This document shows, in pieces, positions 407 through 23,969 of a stretch of DNA of 24,000 bases. Made by a program: the position numbers and the translations under genes. Below the pieces are notes generated by a model. That model saw only the letters and a list, made by a program, of their open reading frames with translations, had not been told where the DNA came from and did not search any database. The stretch is taken from positions 4,779,846 to 4,803,845 of the forward strand of contig NZ_CP064923.1 in NCBI RefSeq assembly GCF_018336915.1, written 5' to 3'. Numbering within the stretch: position 1 is the stretch's first letter; each line of letters begins with the position of its first letter. The stretch is from Acaryochloris marina S15. Its GTDB lineage: Bacteria; Cyanobacteriota; Cyanobacteriia; Thermosynechococcales; Thermosynechococcaceae.

Positions 407-2183
407 ATTAATCCGACATTCAGCAGGTACTAACCATCAAGGGATAATTTTGAGGTTGTCTCTCAACGCAAGTCCATGTATTCACCTCAAGAGATAGACG
501 TTCAGGATATTGACCATCTCGGTATTATTGCCGGTATCGTCGATGAGATCGGCATTGTCGAAATAGTGGATCGATTATTAGGTACTCACGAGCAAGAGAA
601 TGTTAGTTGTGGTCAAGTTGTCAAAGCCCTGATTCTAAATGGTATGGGCTTTTTGAGTGCTCCATTGTACTTATTTAGTGAGTTTTTCGAAAGCAAAGCA
701 ACCGAGCACTTACTCGGTCAAGGTGTACTGCCAGAGCACCTCAACGATACCCGTATCGGTCGAGTCCTCGACAAGCTCTATGCCTATGGTGTGACCCAGA
801 TATTTATCCATGTGGCAATGGCAGTCGTTCAGAAATTCGATGTAGCTCTAAGGTGTGCGCATCTAGATGCGACAAGCCTTAGTGTTGAGGGGCAATACTT
901 AGATAAACCACAGGTTGAGGCGTCAGACGAATCCCCCTCTGCACCTGAGTCCCCCTCCCCTGCACTGGCTGAATCAGAGGAGCCGATACCCGTGAAAATC
1001 ACCTACGGCTACTCACGGGACAATCGTCGTGATCTCAAGCAGTTTGTATTGAACCTACTGGTGAGTGGGGACGGGGGTATTCCTTTATTTTTACAAGTGG
1101 GCAACGGTAATGATGCGGACAAAAGTACGTTTGTGCCTATCATCCATGAATTTAAGCAACAGTGGAGTCAGCAACAGCCAGAGGTGATTGTTGCTGATAG
1201 TGCCCTCTACAGTGCCGACAATCTGCAAGCATTAGGAAGTACATCTTGGATTAGCCGAGTTCCAGCAAGTTCAACGGCAGCCCAAGACTTATTACAAGGG
1301 CTGCCGGGTTCACAGTTTCACCCCAGTGCTCTCAACGGCTATAGCTTTGTCGAAGTATGTAGTACCTATGGAGAGATTCAACAACGGTGGCTGGTGGTTG
1401 AAAGTAAAGCTCGCAGAGACTCTGGACTCAAACAAGTGCAAAAGCGGATTGATCAGGCGTTTAGCCAAAAAACTACTGCACTTAAAACCCTCTGCAAACA
1501 GACCTTCTTGTGCCCTGCAGATGCTTTAGCTGCAGCCCAAGATTTTGGCAAAATCCTCAGGTATCACACCCTTGACGATCTCAAAATCCACAAAAAACCT
1601 CATTATTCAAAGGCTGGACGACCGACAAAAGCAACGGTTGTGACTCACTACACCTATTCTATTGAGGCTACCTTAACCCTCAATGAGCCAGTCATCGAAC
1701 GCTATCGGCGGCAAGCAGGTCGTTTCATCTTAGCCACCAATCTCTTGGAACAAGAGCAATGGAGCAATGATGATATTCTGCGCGAGTATAAGAACCAGCA
1801 GGCGTGTGAAGGAGGCTTTCGCTTTATCAAAGATCCACTCTTCTTTGCCTCTAGTGTTTTCCTGAAGACACCTCGGCGTATCGCTGCCTTAGCCATGATC
1901 ATGGCCTTGTGTTTGATGGTCTACAGCTTAGGACAACGACAGTTAAGAAATGCACTAGAACAAGTACAAACAACTCTCCCTAATCAGAAGGGGAAACAAA
2001 CTATGAAACCTACGTTACGTTGGATTCTCCAATGCTTTCAGGCCGTCCATTTAGTTTGGCTTGATGGTGCCAAGCATCTCATCAAGCTCAACAGCAGGCA
2101 GCAACTTATCTTGCCGTTCCTTGGGAAGGGCTGTAAAAAATATTATCTGCTCTGCTAGCTAGCCTGCTGAATGTAGGATTAAT
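407..2183 (+). mobile_element. IS1634-family (IS4 superfamily) insertion sequence
   Basis: Terminal inverted repeats: ATTAATCCGACATTCAGCAGG at 407-427, versus the reverse complement of 2163-2183 (ATTAATCCTACATTCAGCAGG), 20/21 identical. They enclose a single 560-aa DDE transposase ORF. No clean target duplication abuts these ends. An AACCTT hexamer occurs at 401-406 and 2195-2200, so the right end could instead be 2194. Confidence 0.85.
476..2158 (+). CDS. IS1634/IS4-family DDE transposase
   Basis: 560-aa ORF. The N-terminus (DIDHLGIIAGIVDEIGIVEIVDRLLG...GQVVKALILNGMGF) and the central/C-terminal regions (VADSALYS, RFILATN, YKNQQACEGGFRFIKDP) are typical of IS1634-group transposases. It is flanked by the IRs. 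Confidence 0.9.
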   Translation: MYSPQEIDVQDIDHLGIIAGIVDEIGIVEIVDRLLGTHEQENVSCGQVVKALILNGMGFLSAPLYLFSEFFESKATEHLLGQGVLPEHLNDTRIGRVLDKLYAYGVTQIFIHVAMAVVQKFDVALRCAHLDATSLSVEGQYLDKPQVEASDESPSAPESPSPALAESEEPIPVKITYGYSRDNRRDLKQFVLNLLVSGDGGIPLFLQVGNGNDADKSTFVPIIHEFKQQWSQQQPEVIVADSALYSADNLQALGSTSWISRVPASSTAAQDLLQGLPGSQFHPSALNGYSFVEVCSTYGEIQQRWLVVESKARRDSGLKQVQKRIDQAFSQKTTALKTLCKQTFLCPADALAAAQDFGKILRYHTLDDLKIHKKPHYSKAGRPTKATVVTHYTYSIEATLTLNEPVIERYRRQAGRFILATNLLEQEQWSNDDILREYKNQQACEGGFRFIKDPLFFASSVFLKTPRRIAALAMIMALCLMVYSLGQRQLRNALEQVQTTLPNQKGKQTMKPTLRWILQCFQAVHLVWLDGAKHLIKLNSRQQLILPFLGKGCKKYYLLC

Positions 2184-14144: not shown

Positions 14145-16247
14145 ATGATGCTAGGCATCCAACCATTTAGAGCGGCTTTAACCCCACTCCAAAAAGCTTT
14201 TACCTGTATTTGTTGTTCATCCATGTACCTGACTCGTCTTGTTCACTCTAAGACCCTGCTGTTATTGCGAGAGGCATTTACATCCCTCTTGCCTGTCGTC
14301 TTAGTGATGAATATTATCGTTTTGCTGTCAGGTCTGTCTGGCCTGCTGGCATCTCAGAGCGTGGTAGCAGAGAGTTTCATCAACGGGAATGAAGTCAGCC
14401 GACTCTATTTCTTTTTAGTCCCGTTTTTTCTCAACATTTCCCTGAGCACCCTAATGGCCAAGGAGAAAGATCTGGATCAGGTGAGTACTGTTCTGATCTC
14501 AGTCGTTTGTTTTTTGCGGGTGTCGGGCTTTTTGTTTATCGATTCGACAGGCCAAATCCTCTCGTTTCAAGGTTCAGTGCTCACTAGTATTCCAGCCACA
14601 CTGGTAGCAGTCACACTACTCCATTACTTCAGTCGATTCTCTGCTCTGCAATTTTTTAGAGGTCGATCTGAGGTGAGTCCAGCCCTCCAAAGAACCCTGA
14701 ACCTCCTGATTCCAGGTCTCCTAACAGTGTTGTGTTTTGAGTTAATCGGCCAAGGATTTAGGCTATTTTTTAAGACTGGTCTGTTCAGTTTTTTATTCGA
14801 AATCCTACCTAAATTGCAAGCCACCCAAGAAGTCATTCTCTTTAAGCTAATTTCTCAACTTTCTTGGTTTTTCGGGATTCATGGCGAGTATAGTGCCGAT
14901 GGTCTATTTCGAATTTTGAATGCGATTCCATCCTCTGAAGCTGGCAGTATTCACTTCAAAGTTTTGCATGATGTTTTTATGAATATTGGAGGGTCTGGCT
15001 CCACTTTCGTCGTGCCATTGGCGATTCTTTTTCTACCCGGATCTACCCAATTCAAACCCATTGCGCAGCTGAGTCTGCCATTCGCACTCTTCAATGTGAA
15101 TGAGATTTTATTGTTCGGACTTCCGATTATTCTAAATCCACTCTTTCTGGCACCGTTTCTGTTAGCTCCGCTGGTCAATATGGCTATTGCGCTGACTGCA
15201 ATTCACTGGGGAGCATTCACCATTAGTGCGACTGCCATAAACTGGATGTCTCCGCCTTTATATAGTGCCTATGCGGCCTCTGGAGGATCGGGAGGGGCGG
15301 TACTGACCCAGTTCCTTTGCATCGTTATCGATATGGGTATCTACTATCCATTTCTGGTTCTGGCAAAGCAGCAGTCCAATACTCCACGTGCGCTCCGCAA
15401 GCTCTTGGATGGTGATGCCTACCAGTTTGTGAATAGAGAAATCAATCGCCAAGAAGAGCGGCGTTTTATGACTCAGAAAATGGATCAAGTCCAAGACATG
15501 GAAGAGGTCCAACGCTTACTACAGCAACTCAAAGGCGGGCAGTTTCTCCTCTACTTTCAGCCTAAGGTAGATGCCCAGTCGAAAGCACTCGTTGGCTTAG
15601 AAACGTTGCTGCGTTTCCAAGATGCAGGGGGTAACATTGTCCCCCCTACGTTTTTGCCGATCCTCTACCAACAGGGCTTATCTAAGGCTATAGATCAAAA
15701 AGTGCTGTCGCTTGTTTTTGACCAGATCAAACAGTGGCGAGGGAATGGTCAAGGATTTCCTCAGATTAGTATTAACCTGGATAAACATTTTTTATTAGAT
15801 CCACCCTCTGTAAAGACTTTGATTGCTAAAGCCAGACAAGAAGGGATTTGCTTTGAACTAGAAATTACTGAACATACCTACACTTCGGAAGTGAAATCTT
15901 TGGCATCAGTGGTTCGTGACCTTCGATCTGCTGGGCATCAAGTTTCAATTGATGATTTTGGGGCAGGCTATTCTTCCCTCACAACCTTAGTTTCTCTGGA
16001 AGCAGATTCGGTCAAATTAGACCGCAAGCTGGTCGTCGCCCCTGAAGGGGAAATCCAGCGGGGACGAGTGTTACTAGAGTCTAGTGTGAAGCTCTGTCAT
16101 GACTTAGGATTTTCTGTGGTGGCAGAAGGAATTGAAAACTTGTCTCAGTTACAACTAGTGCAACACTGTGGAGTAGATTTCGTGCAAGGGTATTACACAG
16201 GCAAACCCATGCCTGCTAATCAGGTCAGTCGCCTATTTCAGGCGTAA
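14145..16247 (+). CDS. Membrane protein: PTS EIIC (lactose/cellobiose family)-like domain fused to a C-terminal EAL c-di-GMP phosphodiesterase domain
   Basis: The N-terminal ~430 aa are polytopic, with WFFGIHG, GGSGST, NEILLFGLPIILNP and YYPFLVLAKQQ. These match the ChbC/CelB-type EIIC signatures (WFFGIHG, GGSGAT, NEPILFGLPIIMNP). The C-terminus carries the EAL motifs ETLLR, ISINL, ELEITE, IDDFGAGYSSL, VKLDR, AEGIEN and QGYY. Confidence 0.85.
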   Translation: MMLGIQPFRAALTPLQKAFTCICCSSMYLTRLVHSKTLLLLREAFTSLLPVVLVMNIIVLLSGLSGLLASQSVVAESFINGNEVSRLYFFLVPFFLNISLSTLMAKEKDLDQVSTVLISVVCFLRVSGFLFIDSTGQILSFQGSVLTSIPATLVAVTLLHYFSRFSALQFFRGRSEVSPALQRTLNLLIPGLLTVLCFELIGQGFRLFFKTGLFSFLFEILPKLQATQEVILFKLISQLSWFFGIHGEYSADGLFRILNAIPSSEAGSIHFKVLHDVFMNIGGSGSTFVVPLAILFLPGSTQFKPIAQLSLPFALFNVNEILLFGLPIILNPLFLAPFLLAPLVNMAIALTAIHWGAFTISATAINWMSPPLYSAYAASGGSGGAVLTQFLCIVIDMGIYYPFLVLAKQQSNTPRALRKLLDGDAYQFVNREINRQEERRFMTQKMDQVQDMEEVQRLLQQLKGGQFLLYFQPKVDAQSKALVGLETLLRFQDAGGNIVPPTFLPILYQQGLSKAIDQKVLSLVFDQIKQWRGNGQGFPQISINLDKHFLLDPPSVKTLIAKARQEGICFELEITEHTYTSEVKSLASVVRDLRSAGHQVSIDDFGAGYSSLTTLVSLEADSVKLDRKLVVAPEGEIQRGRVLLESSVKLCHDLGFSVVAEGIENLSQLQLVQHCGVDFVQGYYTGKPMPANQVSRLFQA

Positions 16248-18952: not shown

Positions 18953-18961
18953 GGTCGTGCA

Positions 18962-19462
18962 TCAAACAATTGTGGGGTAGGTGAGTATGTCATCCCAATG
19001 CCAAGCTCGCGAGGCTAGATCAGCACGTTGTGCCGCCGTTGTTTTAAGCCGACTGTGTGTCCAAATCCAATTGAAATAGCTGACCACTAATCGAGCAGTG
19101 ACTTTGGTTTGCGCCCACACTTTGCCAAATTTGTTCTGGCGTCGATGCCATCGACCACTGTGCTGTCGAATAATGCCATTGGTGCGTTCGAGTCGTTGAG
19201 TTCTGTCCTTGCCAATGTAATGGTCAATCTCCCAAGGCAACACTCTTTCGTAACCACCCCAATCGTCGCTATTCCAGTCCTTGCAATCGGTCTTACCTTC
19301 AGTGCTAGTCACCAGTTCATTCAATAATGAATCGGTGTGCTTGCCCACACGACACGAGAGGATCACGCCGCTTGTGTTTGCCAAGGTAATCGCCATCCAA
19401 CAATCACCCATCTCTAGCTCATGGGGAAGACAGTGTTTTTGCTTTTTTTCACAAAGGACCAC
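18962..19462 (-). CDS. IS1-family transposase catalytic part (InsB-like frame; expressed as an InsAB fusion)
   Basis: The -1 frame relative to InsA has no convincing independent start (GTG in the track). The IS1-type DDE region includes WMAITL..., DDWGGYERV and IGKDRTQRLERTNGIIRQ. Confidence 0.85.
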   Translation of the reverse strand: MVLCEKKQKHCLPHELEMGDCWMAITLANTSGVILSCRVGKHTDSLLNELVTSTEGKTDCKDWNSDDWGGYERVLPWEIDHYIGKDRTQRLERTNGIIRQHSGRWHRRQNKFGKVWAQTKVTARLVVSYFNWIWTHSRLKTTAAQRADLASRAWHWDDILTYPTIV

Positions 19463-19791
19463 ATTTCATCTGCACTGACATCCTCCGTTTCAACGGCTTG
19501 CACTTGGCCATTATGGAGTTGCTGAGATCGTTGGCTAGCAGCTCTTACTAGAGAGACTACAGTGTTGTAAGCCAGGCCACTGGTCCGAGTGATACCTCGA
19601 AGACTACTCCCTTCTGCATGGGCTTGGAGAACTTGTCGGACCTGCTCTGGACTCACCTGACGACGATAGTAAAGGGTATCAAAGCGTTCAGTAAAGGTCT
19701 GCTGGCACTCAGGACAACGGTATCGTTGAAGCATGTTGGGCATCTTGCCATGCTTGTGTGCTTTGGAATGACCGCATAGTGGGCATTGCAT
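19414..19791 (-). CDS. IS1-family InsA-like protein (zinc finger + HTH), upstream frame of the transposase
   Basis: MQCPLCGHSKAHKHGK...YRCPECQQTF zinc-finger pair, an HTH region and ADEMWSFVKK at the frameshift window. Confidence 0.85.
   Translation of the reverse strand: MQCPLCGHSKAHKHGKMPNMLQRYRCPECQQTFTERFDTLYYRRQVSPEQVRQVLQAHAEGSSLRGITRTSGLAYNTVVSLVRAASQRSQQLHNGQVQAVETEDVSADEMWSFVKKSKNTVFPMS
19443..19449 (-). promoter_or_regulatory. Programmed -1 ribosomal frameshift site (A7 run)
   Basis: The minus strand reads TTT GTG AAA AAA AGC. A -1 slip joins ...EMWSFVKK to KQKHCLPHELEMGDCWMAI of the downstream ORF, as in IS1 InsAB' production. Confidence 0.7.
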
Positions 19792-19855
19792 GGGTAGGTT
19801 AGAAGCTGAGCTGAGCCTCTAGTATACTCAACCCACAATTACTTGAGGCACGACC

Positions 19856-21354: not shown

Positions 21355-21870
21355 TTAGAACGTCACATACAGCCCACTCTGTCGCGCAAGGCAACTTCTG
21401 AGGAATGAAAGGTACTCTATCGTCAAGGAATTATCCGACTTAGATAGAAGTTCAAAGGACTGGCTTACCTCATCTGGTGATTGAAAATACGATCCCATTT
21501 TCCCTGGATCAAACGGATTGAAAGAAGGTCCAACGGTTTGACCCAACAGAGCGGCTTGGGATGAGTGAGTTAAACAATCGCCACAATCAAGCCATGCAGA
21601 ACCGATACCAAAATCTTTGATTGGATCATAGAAGCGGGTAATCGCAAAATCTCCAAGTGTGTGAACATCATGAACATTTTCTACTTGTGTTCGCCAATCT
21701 AAATTGAGAGGTTCCCCTTCATATGGATCAACAAGGAATCGCACATTTTCTTCTATGTATGAGTGCAGTGGAACTACATCATTTGATGCAAGAGCATTAT
21801 GTAAAATCGTGAGAAAGTCAGTCTTAAAAAACTGCCAATCAAATTCGAAAGCTTTATGCTCCATCGACAT
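21355..21870 (-). CDS. Hypothetical protein (171 aa), no recognisable domain
   Basis: ORF only, A+T-rich. It starts 17 nt after the attC-like site P1. Confidence 0.6.
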   Translation of the reverse strand: MSMEHKAFEFDWQFFKTDFLTILHNALASNDVVPLHSYIEENVRFLVDPYEGEPLNLDWRTQVENVHDVHTLGDFAITRFYDPIKDFGIGSAWLDCGDCLTHSSQAALLGQTVGPSFNPFDPGKMGSYFQSPDEVSQSFELLSKSDNSLTIEYLSFLRSCLARQSGLYVTF

Positions 21871-21976: not shown

Positions 21977-22822
21977 ATTTTTTACGCCGAGTGCAAAATC
22001 GAGTGCGCGCTGAAAACGGGATAAAGGGATTCCGTGCTCCGTTCGTTCTAAGTCAGACGAGTGATAGTTCAGCCAATGATATTTCTTCAACGCCTCTGGT
22101 GGTTCACAGTCTGTGTCCAACAAAACGGGAATAATGTAGATTTCGCCCTCTGGCACCTCCTCTGCGACCTCAACGCTCTTGCGCAGTTCTTTTTGAAAGT
22201 AGCCGCGCTTAGCTATTGCATTGGAAGAGAGCAGCGGCATAAACACCTGAGATCGACGAATAGCCCTTCGGATTTCAAGCCCCCAATCCTGGCCGGGAAT
22301 TAATGACTCTTCGTCGAACCAGAGTCGGTATCCCATTATCTTGAGTTTTTCGTAAATCGTACGGGCAATTTCCACGTCGACGCGCGAATAAGATAGGAAA
22401 ATCTGGTCGGAGCTGCGCTGGTGCCGTTCTCCCAATTCATCCACGTGTCTAAGAATCTCGTTGATCGCAGCATCTTCATCGCCATCAAAGTAAACAAGTC
22501 GTTCTCCAGCAAGATATTTCGGCGCACGGCTAACAAGCTTTTGTGTGGTGAGCAAGACGGTCCGATGGTCGTTGCCGTGACCAGTGAAAAAGGCAATCTC
22601 ACTTGCCACATTTGCGTACCATGTGGTGTGCAAACCAACAGCAACCAATGTGTCGGCATTCCGAATTGCTTTCGCGACGTCATCATCAACGAACGAAAAC
22701 TCGGAAAAATCGGCCCGGATTTGTTCACCAGCGATCGCTTGGTGTCCTGATTTTGTGATGCGCTGCGCAATCTTGAGAGCGAATTCCTTGTCGTAGTTGG
22801 TATGAGCGACGAAAACAATCAT
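21971..22822 (-). CDS. Tandem TIR-like / TIR-domain protein
   Basis: The C-terminal half is a clear TIR_2-type domain (IFLSYSRVDVEIARTIYEKLKIMGYRLWFDEESLIPGQDW...VFMPLLSSNAIAKRGYFQKELR...IIPVLLD), including the conserved Glu position. The N-terminal half (MIVFVAHTNYDKEFALKIAQRI...ADTLVAVG...WYANVASEIAF) looks like a second, divergent TIR/flavodoxin-like fold. Confidence 0.85.
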   Translation of the reverse strand: MIVFVAHTNYDKEFALKIAQRITKSGHQAIAGEQIRADFSEFSFVDDDVAKAIRNADTLVAVGLHTTWYANVASEIAFFTGHGNDHRTVLLTTQKLVSRAPKYLAGERLVYFDGDEDAAINEILRHVDELGERHQRSSDQIFLSYSRVDVEIARTIYEKLKIMGYRLWFDEESLIPGQDWGLEIRRAIRRSQVFMPLLSSNAIAKRGYFQKELRKSVEVAEEVPEGEIYIIPVLLDTDCEPPEALKKYHWLNYHSSDLERTEHGIPLSRFQRALDFALGVKNA

Positions 22823-22848: not shown

Positions 22849-22949
22849 ACCTAACGTCTGGCATAATCGGGCCGCCGCGATTGATGCTCTATTTGAAAAC
22901 GTGTTGAAAACGTGCTGACGGGGGCTCCGCGTTCATGCCTTTGTTATGC
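22849..22949 (-). other. attC-like recombination site (P2), 101 bp
   Basis: The minus strand reads GCATAAC...GTTAGGT. The TAA stop of the upstream ORF lies within the first box. GGCAT/ATGCC and GC-rich pairings are present. There is an internal 11-nt tandem duplication TTGAAAACGTG x2 (22893-22914). It is homologous to P1. Confidence 0.65.
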
Positions 22950-23969
22950 GATATTGGAAAACATCTTGGGAGGCTCCTCATCGCTGTGGTCAATATTGAA
23001 CTTGGCGACTCCGTTATCATATGCAGTCCGGTAGTCGCTGCTGTTACCAATTGCGGTGTAGAATCCACTGGTAAACACTGTGGCCCCTGCATCGGAGATG
23101 ATTCCGGTCGCACCGATGGTGAATGGGACATCAGCGGACACACGCTCGGCCAATCCATCAGTTTCGCAGCACGAGAACAGGACGCATTCGAGCTTCTTTG
23201 CGAGCGGGCGAAGGAGCGCATGGAATAAATCGTAGCTCACAGCTTTAGTGGTACCATCCGATGATTCAAACAGAAATCCGCCTGTCTCCGTGCCAGAGCA
23301 CGACAAATGAAGGATTTCGGGATGGTGCAAAAGCAGTAATCGATCCAAGTCGTGGGCTTGCACGGCCCACTCTTGTTCAAGAACTATTTCACCAGATCGA
23401 CGTGCAGATTCGAGTGCCCGCGTAATTCGCCGCACCTCACAATCCATTCGAAGCCGATTCTCGTCAATCGGATTGGCACAGAGCACCAGTACCTTTCGTG
23501 CGGCTTTCCGCTGACCCCAATTTTGTAATTCTTGCCGAATCGTGAAGCATGCGGGACCGACCGCGGTCAATAAGTTTCCTTGGTCCGCACTGCGGTAAGC
23601 GGCAAAGGTCACACCATGGAGGTCACTGATAACGTCAGGCTTGGCACTTGCGTCGAAAACAGCAAATGTCCGTGAACGCCCGACGTGACCATAGAAAAGT
23701 CCAAGTTCAAAAAGAACGTTTCCGCGCGTAGTTCCGGTCTCCGCTCCGCGGCTAACAAGAGTATCGTCGCTGCGAAGAACGAAAATGCCGTAGTCGAATT
23801 GCTTGACGGTGTCCACCAACGTCTCAAGATAGCCATGCGATAGACTGAATACACCTTCGTTCCAAAGGACGACCTCGGCGGCGTCAGCGAGTTGGTGTTG
23901 GATCGCTCTGGCAACATCAAGCCCTTCAGACGACGACCCAATGAAGACTCGTGGTTTTTGTATTGTCAT
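22944..23969 (-). CDS. TIR-like (CAP12/Pycsar-effector-type, PF10137-like) N-terminal domain fused to a CHAT/caspase-like C-terminal domain
   Basis: The N-terminus RVFIGSSSEGLDVARAIQHQL...WNEGVF...LETL...FDYGIFVLRSDD...RGNVLFELGLFYGHVGRSRTF fits the TIR-like nucleotide-binding family. The C-terminus KVLVLCANPIDENRLRMDCEVRRI...ILHLSCSG...ECVLFSCCETDG...IGATGIISDAGATVFTSGFY matches the small CHAT-like module common in cyanobacteria (consensus ...HFSGHG...LNAC...). Confidence 0.8.
   Translation of the reverse strand: MTIQKPRVFIGSSSEGLDVARAIQHQLADAAEVVLWNEGVFSLSHGYLETLVDTVKQFDYGIFVLRSDDTLVSRGAETGTTRGNVLFELGLFYGHVGRSRTFAVFDASAKPDVISDLHGVTFAAYRSADQGNLLTAVGPACFTIRQELQNWGQRKAARKVLVLCANPIDENRLRMDCEVRRITRALESARRSGEIVLEQEWAVQAHDLDRLLLLHHPEILHLSCSGTETGGFLFESSDGTTKAVSYDLFHALLRPLAKKLECVLFSCCETDGLAERVSADVPFTIGATGIISDAGATVFTSGFYTAIGNSSDYRTAYDNGVAKFNIDHSDEEPPKMFSNIA

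Follow-up and report, generated by a model that had tools for sequence, protein, structure and literature searches.

Background

To our knowledge, NAD+ hydrolases (NADases) of the Cap12/PycTIR type have so far been understood only as second-messenger receptors, i.e. in combination with a STING, SAVED or cyclic-nucleotide (cNMP)-binding domain and a cyclase. A NADase of this class with a different kind of control domain is predicted in the cyanobacterium Acaryochloris marina S15, in a stretch of 24,000 nucleotides (contig NZ_CP064923.1, positions 4,779,846 to 4,803,845 of the forward strand) that was analysed over its whole length and is referred to as the window. The gene encodes a protein of 341 amino acids, in which an N-terminal TIR-like domain is followed by a putative caspase-fold domain of the compact CHAT family that is devoid of the catalytic His-Cys dyad.

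Several described systems come close to this protein in one or the other of its domains. Cap12 or TIR-STING (SfSTING; PDB entries 7un8 and 9lmq), an effector of the cyclic-oligonucleotide-based antiphage signalling system (CBASS), has the same N-terminal PF10137 NADase, the same order of domains (effector first, regulatory domain second), and a similar size (~310-340 amino acids); its NADase is switched on via ligand-induced filament formation (PMC9402430). PycTIR of the Pycsar system (8jsj), another PF10137 relative, is also switched on via ligand-induced filament formation, and comprises an N-terminal cNMP-binding domain (CNBD) with a pyrimidine cyclase as its partner. SAVED-CHAT of Haliangium ochraceum (8tl0) is a type III-B CRISPR/CBASS-like protease with a SAVED domain that senses cyclic tri-adenylate (cA3) and with the catalytic dyad H375/C422; upon assembly into filaments, interfaces form between its CHAT domains, which become more rigid (10.1101/2023.06.23.546230). 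Type IV Thoeris combines TIR and caspase-superfamily modules in bacterial immunity, as a two-gene operon for a signal-producing TIR protein and an active, Arg-specific caspase-like effector (ThsE). Finally, a function in regulation, in peptide binding or as a decoy has been proposed or demonstrated for caspase folds without catalysis, as in the case of the animal pseudo-caspase c-FLIP(L) and of the inactive caspase-like domains of bacterial vWA-MoxR systems (Kaur et al. 2020). Among bacterial conflict systems there is a class in which ~70 % of the caspase domains are inactive, and dominant-negative, peptide-binding or decoy roles were proposed for them (PMC7159879). The latter examples belong to other clades and contexts than the A. 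marina protein and lack a fused PF10137 NADase; those from bacteria are known from computational prediction only.

The gene was first picked out in an initial annotation of the DNA, which knew of no characterised fusion of this kind. This holds within the literature searched: full-text searches, directed at fusions of TIR, CHAT and caspase domains, at pseudo-caspases and at CHAT domains without activity, gave no description of a TIR-like/pseudo-CHAT architecture. Likewise, no report of an experimental test of a non-catalytic bacterial caspase-like domain was found in that literature, though such domains are predicted in conflict systems.

Gene product and predicted N-terminal NADase domain

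The open reading frame (ORF) and its 341-residue, two-domain product are as initially described, with the addition that the gene lies on the minus strand (Table 1); the motifs FELG, HLSCSG and FSCCETDG stand at the places claimed for them, as verified by their codons in the DNA of the window. The product is identical (100 %) to WP_212663043.1 / QUY41850.1 of A. marina, annotated as 'nucleotide-binding protein', and WP_212663043.1 forms a singleton cluster at 90 % identity among ~15 billion proteins.

The CBASS/Pycsar-type character proposed for the N-terminal half was confirmed by each profile and sequence comparison. Residues 7-125 match PF10137 (CAP12/Pycsar effector TIR domain; E 2.3e-26, 92.6 bits at a cut-off of 24.7), the PADLOC models for the CBASS 'Effector TIR' and for PycTIR are matched with E 7e-33 to 5e-43, and the Cap12/PycTIR sequences in the PDB with E 1e-17 to 1e-22. 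The closest solved structures by sequence are the TIR-STING/Cap12 proteins 9lmq and 7un8, and PycTIR 8jsj (E 3e-18).

The NADase pocket of SfSTING consists of F6, W33, F37, L47, S10, R78, N80 and the catalytic E84, and is completed by D110 of the opposing TIR domain (PMC9402430). In a direct alignment to 7un8 (whose chain numbering is +8 relative to that of the SfSTING paper), all nine residues are identical in the A. marina protein, with F6/S10/W33/F37/L47/R78/N80/E84/D110 corresponding to F9/S13/W36/F41/L51/R82/N84/E88/D116. The same nine are kept in all 27 fusion proteins that are described below, save for two N-terminally truncated gene calls. Judged by this alignment, the domain is predicted to hold all residues known to be needed for NAD+ hydrolysis, including the one that ties activity to TIR-TIR packing, and its NADase is apparently intact and probably active.

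C-terminal compact CHAT-like domain

A search with the CHAT profile PF12770, the check that the initial annotation had proposed, yields no match for the protein, nor for its C-terminal half by itself at a threshold as loose as E<=10 (hmmscan), and the CHAT assignment rests on PDB-sequence, profile-profile and fold evidence instead. With phmmer against PDB sequences, residues 157-321 match 8tl0, the activated SAVED-CHAT filament (E 1e-6). In an exhaustive HMMER search, the profile built from the C-terminal domain retrieved 19,515 cluster representatives, 5,021 of them at E<=1e-30. Among 46 single-copy relatives of the domain that were scanned, 45 match PF12770, the lone exception being a member of the query's own family; in a profile-profile comparison (hhalign) with these 46 relatives the domain is aligned with a probability of 100 % (E 7.6e-63). 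The consensus of the relatives, 'IVHFSGHG ... VVLNACYS', also reproduces the motif HFSGHG that had initially been quoted for related modules.

The AlphaFold2 model of the isolated domain has a mean predicted local distance difference test score (pLDDT) of 94.8 and a predicted TM-score (pTM) of 0.91. When superposed with Foldseek, as had been suggested for locating the dyad, the model shows a caspase-like fold: it matches the CHAT domain of 8tl0 with a TM-score of 0.88-0.90 (root-mean-square deviation 2.1-2.3 A, ~20 % identity), and caspases-3, -4, -7, -8, -9 and -11 and MALT1 with TM-scores of ~0.6-0.66; the full-length model returns the same top structural matches. The compact CHAT-like identity of this half is upheld by these comparisons, and on sequence and model grounds the domain, which has the caspase-hemoglobinase fold, is assigned to the compact CHAT family by structure and by descent, but not as one of its enzymes.

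The catalytic residues H375 and C422 of SAVED-CHAT align to Ser225 and Cys268 of the A. marina protein, respectively, in the phmmer alignment to 8tl0 (the deposited chain is numbered 20 below the paper, and the dyad corresponds to positions 355 (within GHG) and 402 (within NAC) of the chain, as counted from the alignment). The initial claim that the canonical His is replaced and the Cys retained is hence correct. SAVED-CHAT is the closest solved structure to the C-terminal domain and shares the two-domain layout; it is an active protease with a sensor domain, whereas the A. marina protein has Ser225 in place of the dyad His, belongs to a family without the dyad, and has an NADase, not a sensor, as the partner domain. 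Membership in the SAVED-CHAT group was rejected in view of the PF10137 TIR-like domain at the N-terminus.

A family of 27 fusion proteins without a dyad

Two large searches and local hidden Markov model scans for a PF10137 N-terminal domain joined to a CHAT-like C-terminal domain yielded 27 proteins in three lineages: a main family of 13 (the A. marina protein and 12 relatives of 37-79 % identity), the pair P0015 and P0019, and a 12-member group (P0272, P0274, P0279 and others). The His-Cys dyad is complete in 0/27 of these fusion proteins, but in 103/105 of the compact-CHAT relatives that consist of a single domain and have no TIR-like half (Fisher p 4e-26, with no correction for phylogeny). 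Within the main family, the His column reads S, Q, S, S, M, P, S, S, H, H, H, P, H and the Cys column C, C, C, C, E, C, C, C, D, G, D, G, G; wherever the His is kept (four members), the Cys is missing, and P0155 has neither. In the two diverged lineages the His position is occupied by F, Y, N or S, and the Cys is kept ('ATCDS'). Because no fusion protein has the dyad, and because the members differ in whether His, Cys or both were lost, we conclude from the alignments that the C-terminal domain is best read as a conserved pseudo-protease, joined to a conserved and probably active NADase.

The initial annotation had left the choice between an inactive module and a protease with a non-canonical dyad; the former is favoured by the family-wide loss, and the latter loses ground. 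For a non-canonical protease, Cys268 would operate with His221 or with another base, or the family-specific Cys224 would be involved. Cys268 is kept here and in 21/27 fusion proteins, His221 is invariant, and Cys224 is invariant in the 13-member main family at a position where 177/205 canonical domains have Gly. A universal nucleophile is lacking, however, with E, D or G at the Cys268 position in six of the 13 main-family members, and Gly, Ala, Ser or Val at the Cys224 position in the two diverged lineages, and P0155 would have to function with neither dyad residue. His221 is equally conserved (199/205 compact-CHAT domains) in canonical enzymes that have the normal His, and is therefore a scaffold residue rather than a replacement base. 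On balance, proteolysis by such a route has only a small chance of being the function of the domain. Cys224, which directly precedes the former catalytic-His position, could be a new functional thiol, a disulfide partner or a metal ligand together with Cys267/268, or a lineage marker. A four-ligand metal site of H215, H221, C224 and C262, all of them invariant, was considered and set aside: H221 and C262 are general compact-CHAT scaffold residues, and H215 and C262 probably lie at the end of the sheet opposite to C224, as judged from the strand topology of the model.

Loss of the dyad was not accompanied by loss of the domain. About 27 scaffold positions are invariant or near-invariant at ~28 % identity, including N166-P167, D176-x-E178-x-R180, W201-A202, H215, P217, H221, C224, E235, G239, C262, F299, F303-Y304 and G308, and most of them are conserved in canonical CHATs, too. 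The possibility was considered that the C-terminal domain is decaying, as what is left of a formerly active CHAT and without a role today, and that the TIR-like domain acts or is regulated independently. The heterogeneous loss of the dyad and the lower conservation of the C-terminal compared to the N-terminal domain would fit such a remnant; against it stand the retention of the full-length domain in all three lineages without truncations, and its very confident fold prediction. Since ~27 scaffold positions are held at ~28 % identity, the domain is not regarded as decaying, and a functionless remnant is given very little probability.

The C-terminal position as an exchangeable slot

The two halves evolve at different rates, the C-terminal domain being the faster one in 55/55 pairwise comparisons (mean identity 42 % vs 63 % for the TIR domain). 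A protein of 306 amino acids (P0011) has a TIR-like half that is 73 % identical to that of the A. marina protein, joined to a weakly PAS-like C-terminus and not to a CHAT domain, which points to a recent swap of the C-terminal domain on a nearly identical NADase. In other PF10137 proteins, PilZ (PF07238) or TIR_2 (PF13676) domains are found or, in precomputed Pfam assignments, PF02661, PF20016 or PF20300. The C-terminal position thus behaves as an exchangeable regulatory slot, by analogy with the place that STING, SAVED and CNBD domains have in the characterised relatives. A fast-evolving C-terminal domain and the swap in P0011 are what a constant effector with an interchangeable sensor would be expected to show.

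Another reading is an integrated decoy, i.e. a dead CHAT domain that mimics host CHAT proteases and is bound by phage protease inhibitors or substrates, by which the fused NADase would be switched on. The fold and the scaffold motifs (NP, D-x-E-x-R, H221, F-x3-FY) are kept while the catalytic residues are lost, the domain is the faster-evolving half, and a decoy role for inactive enzyme domains is explicitly raised by Kaur et al. (PMC7159879). The idea is purely inferential, however, and matches in a viral fold library were limited to giant-virus proteins with a generic caspase fold and to two or three other viral proteins that are uncharacterised (one annotated as Myoviridae), none of them informative on a ligand. 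We regard the decoy as distinctly unlikely.

Non-catalytic copies are also frequent among the tandem compact-CHAT relatives of the domain (P0121-P0154), where 26/34 two-domain proteins comprise one intact and one degenerate copy; this pairing of active and pseudo copies suggests that non-catalytic copies have a recurrent role as partner or scaffold, as in caspase-type dimers. The pseudo-CHAT domain of the A. marina protein might accordingly be a c-FLIP-like adaptor that pairs in trans with an active CHAT or caspase-like protein encoded elsewhere, in the way of c-FLIP with caspase-8, so that the NADase would be recruited to, or controlled by, a protease. Besides the recurrent pairing, such an adaptor would find abundant partners in the canonical compact CHATs, which are fused to many signalling and effector domains, and has its models in the dominant-negative roles that were proposed for inactive caspase domains (PMC7159879) and in the animal pseudo-caspase FLIP(L) (PMC7586951). 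At the ten loci compared below, on the other hand, no CHAT or caspase gene is conserved near the fusion gene. Hetero-pairing in trans is a possible but improbable explanation.

Genomic context

Features of the fusion gene and of its neighbourhood are summarized in Table 1.

Table 1. Coordinates of the TIR-like/pseudo-CHAT fusion gene, its motifs and the neighbouring features in the window
Feature	Position	Strand	Remarks
ORF of the fusion gene	22944-23969	minus	341 aa + stop, ATG start; from the ORF list
TIR-like NADase domain, Cap12/PycTIR class (predicted)	23520-23957	minus	aa 5-150; PF10137, PADLOC, PDB 9lmq/8jsj/7un8
Glu88 codon (motif FELG)	23706-23708	minus	aligns to catalytic E84 of SfSTING; kept 27/27
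Asp116 codon	23622-23624	minus	aligns to D110 (trans-acting) of SfSTING; kept 27/27
Compact CHAT/caspase-fold domain, dyad absent (predicted)	22959-23498	minus	aa 158-337; 8tl0 phmmer, hhalign, AlphaFold2, Foldseek
HLSCSG	23292-23309	minus	aa 221-226; Ser225 at the catalytic-His position
Cys224 codon	23298-23300	minus	directly before the former catalytic-His position
FSCCETDG	23154-23177	minus	aa 265-272; Cys268 at the catalytic-Cys position
TIR_2 protein, 283 aa	21971-22822	minus	121-bp gap downstream of the fusion gene
171-aa protein	21355-21870	minus	no family match
GYF_2 protein, 179 aa	20623-21162	minus	downstream of the 171-aa protein gene
IS1-family element	18953-19855		bounded by 24-nt inverted repeats, 88 % complementary

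The context was compared over ten loci, i.e. the window and nine further loci with family members (L001-L009). No neighbour gene is conserved over the ten, be it for a cyclase, a protease, a TIR protein or any other product, and no cyclase or protease partner is present at any of them, the window being seen downstream of the gene. The initial description of a stand-alone, one-gene element is thereby substantiated.

The lack of a cyclase sets the protein apart from the second-messenger systems with which its N-terminal domain is shared. Unlike Cap12, the A. marina protein has a pseudo-CHAT instead of a STING domain, no CD-NTase nearby and no recognisable cyclic-dinucleotide sensor; membership in CBASS was rejected, there being no cyclase downstream in the window or in L001-L009, and the C-terminal domain being CHAT-like and neither STING nor SAVED. 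With PycTIR the protein has the TIR-like NADase class in common and likely also the logic of activation through an oligomerisation that is driven by the non-TIR domain, but the order of the domains is reversed and neither a CNBD nor a cyclase is found. Membership in Pycsar was rejected for the missing CNBD match and for the missing cyclase at every locus.

The nearest neighbour in the window is a TIR gene. Its 283-aa product has a strong C-terminal TIR_2 match (E 4.5e-31) and a weak PF10137-like N-terminal half (E 0.21), with PADLOC matches to Argonaute-associated-TIR and ThsB-like models, and the stretch 'NVASEIAFF' apparently places, by eye, a Glu where the A. marina fusion protein has its catalytic Glu; the neighbour would be a double-TIR protein beside a TIR-like NADase. 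Separately, the HIP1 palindrome GCGATCGC, which is typical of cyanobacterial genomes, is located inside this TIR gene (22731-22738) and causes a spurious terminator-like hairpin call.

A two-gene, Thoeris-like system would follow if the TIR-like/pseudo-CHAT protein responded to a nucleotide signal made by the TIR_2 protein. The two genes share the strand and are only 121 bp apart, the neighbour has the TIR_2 and ThsB-like matches given above, and a TIR_2 protein is also encoded two genes away from the fusion gene in L003. The locus of the closest homologue (79 % identity, L002) has no TIR neighbour, however, and neither have seven other loci; the TIR proteins of the window and of L003 share 32 % identity over 96 amino acids only; and the signal of type IV Thoeris is thought to bind to a separate C-terminal domain and not to the caspase fold. 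Type IV Thoeris further differs in its two-gene operon with a signal-producing TIR protein and an active protease, in contrast to one polypeptide with a Cap12-type, NAD+-degrading domain and a dead CHAT. Membership was rejected on the grounds of the single fused gene, the dead dyad and the non-conserved TIR_2 neighbour. Because this neighbour is absent from the locus of the 79 %-identical homologue and from most others, the two-gene system was not adopted as the principal explanation, and it is considered highly improbable.

The other loci have varied neighbours. Defence or toxin-antitoxin genes are found near the gene at five of the ten loci: the window, L001 (ImmA/IrrE-like M78 peptidase, HigB/HTH, Polbeta-HEPN), L003 (Mrr-type nuclease, in addition to the TIR_2 protein), L004 (HEPN_AbiU2) and L005 (HTH-type genes). 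On two metagenomic contigs, the family member P0270 is directly followed by a gene for a group II intron reverse transcriptase/maturase (RVT_1 + GIIM; 8246-8608 in L008, 2325-3740 in L009), and no defence-like neighbours are present at L002, L006 and L007. A 348-aa gene beside P0279 was examined as a possible paralogue or partner and discarded, with no similarity and no Pfam family. The gene is best treated as a stand-alone accessory gene that is often found among defence or toxin-antitoxin genes.

The initial annotation had also proposed that the gene is carried as a mobile cassette, which could not be corroborated. No convincing flanking repeats, no att-like sites and no tRNA genes bound the fusion gene within the window, the upstream flank lying beyond it, and the nearest insertion sequence (IS) element is situated ~3 kb past the 3' end of the gene. 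This IS1-family element contains overlapping InsA-like (19414-19791) and InsB-like (18962-19462) ORFs, an arrangement that suggests, by sequence, the usual frameshift-fused transposase. The GC content is mosaic, with 42 % at 20-22 kb and 52 % across the fusion gene at a background of 46-49 %, and the two TIR genes together with the GYF_2 and 171-aa genes look like a small acquired island beside the IS element. Another transposase gene, for a 560-aa protein with DUF4277 and DDE_Tnp_1 domains (IS4-like), is located at the opposite end of the window (476-2158, plus strand).

The remainder of the window encodes mostly housekeeping functions, e.g. a peptide ABC transporter, 6-phosphogluconate dehydrogenase, cytochrome c peroxidase and an S41 peptidase. 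A gene on the plus strand (14145-16247) encodes a 700-aa protein with a PTS_EIIC-type membrane domain (E 1e-16) and a C-terminal EAL cyclic di-GMP phosphodiesterase domain (E 2e-56), an architecture that was found to be unusual.

Proposed mode of action

We propose, with moderate confidence, that the gene encodes a stand-alone, one-polypeptide NADase of the abortive-infection type, in which the pseudo-CHAT domain takes the place of the STING, SAVED or cNMP sensor and controls TIR-TIR assembly. The TIR-like domain would be the enzyme, a predicted NAD+ hydrolase, and would probably be active only once two TIR domains pack, as in TIR-STING, with Asp116 of one subunit completing the pocket around Glu88 of the other. 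The pseudo-CHAT domain, which appears to keep the caspase fold and its scaffold motifs and not the dyad, would be the regulatory module: it may bind a ligand as its trigger (most likely a protein or peptide, and not a nucleotide), and/or it may self-associate in the manner of caspase and CHAT dimers. Binding of the trigger or self-association would then drive TIR-TIR assembly, which would lead to NAD+ depletion, presumably in defence. The computational observations underneath this proposal are the identities of both domains, the conservation of the NADase site, the family-wide loss of the dyad and the absence of a conserved partner gene.

Some of the observations weigh against the stand-alone NADase. 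The TIR-like half of the full-length model was predicted with moderate confidence (pLDDT 50-88). The 21 fusion proteins that keep Cys268 include all 14 members of the diverged lineages, which is more than pure neutral drift predicts, and leaves room for a residual Cys-dependent function. Furthermore, most of the genomic contexts compared are short metagenomic contigs, and the upstream side of the A. marina gene is outside the window.

The proposal may be extended to a bacterial pseudo-caspase that acts as an immune sensor, in which the dead CHAT domain, as an integrated decoy or a pairing module, converts recognition into NAD+ depletion via the TIR-like domain. The proteins recognised in this way may be phage proteins that target host CHAT or caspase proteases, or activated host CHAT proteases. 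We consider this extension speculative and, at present, unlikely to be correct in full.

Significance

The alignments and models would add to a known class of NADase effectors a new variant, with a non-catalytic, caspase-fold control domain. An apparently intact NADase is combined here with a different control domain and with no cyclase, and a switch-on that is independent of a second messenger is therefore implied. The family also represents a clean case of a bacterial pseudo-protease, with the fold kept in three lineages, the dyad lost in 27/27 proteins and the active site of the partner enzyme invariant, and as a single small gene of 341 codons it is easily testable. If the pseudo-CHAT domain indeed serves for sensing, as a decoy or for pairing, what the cell-death machineries of bacteria and eukaryotes have in common would extend from TIR and caspase to pseudo-caspase domains; and if it should be a pseudo-caspase sensor, it would be a prokaryotic counterpart of the c-FLIP-type pseudo-caspases and of the integrated decoys of plant nucleotide-binding leucine-rich-repeat (NLR) receptors.

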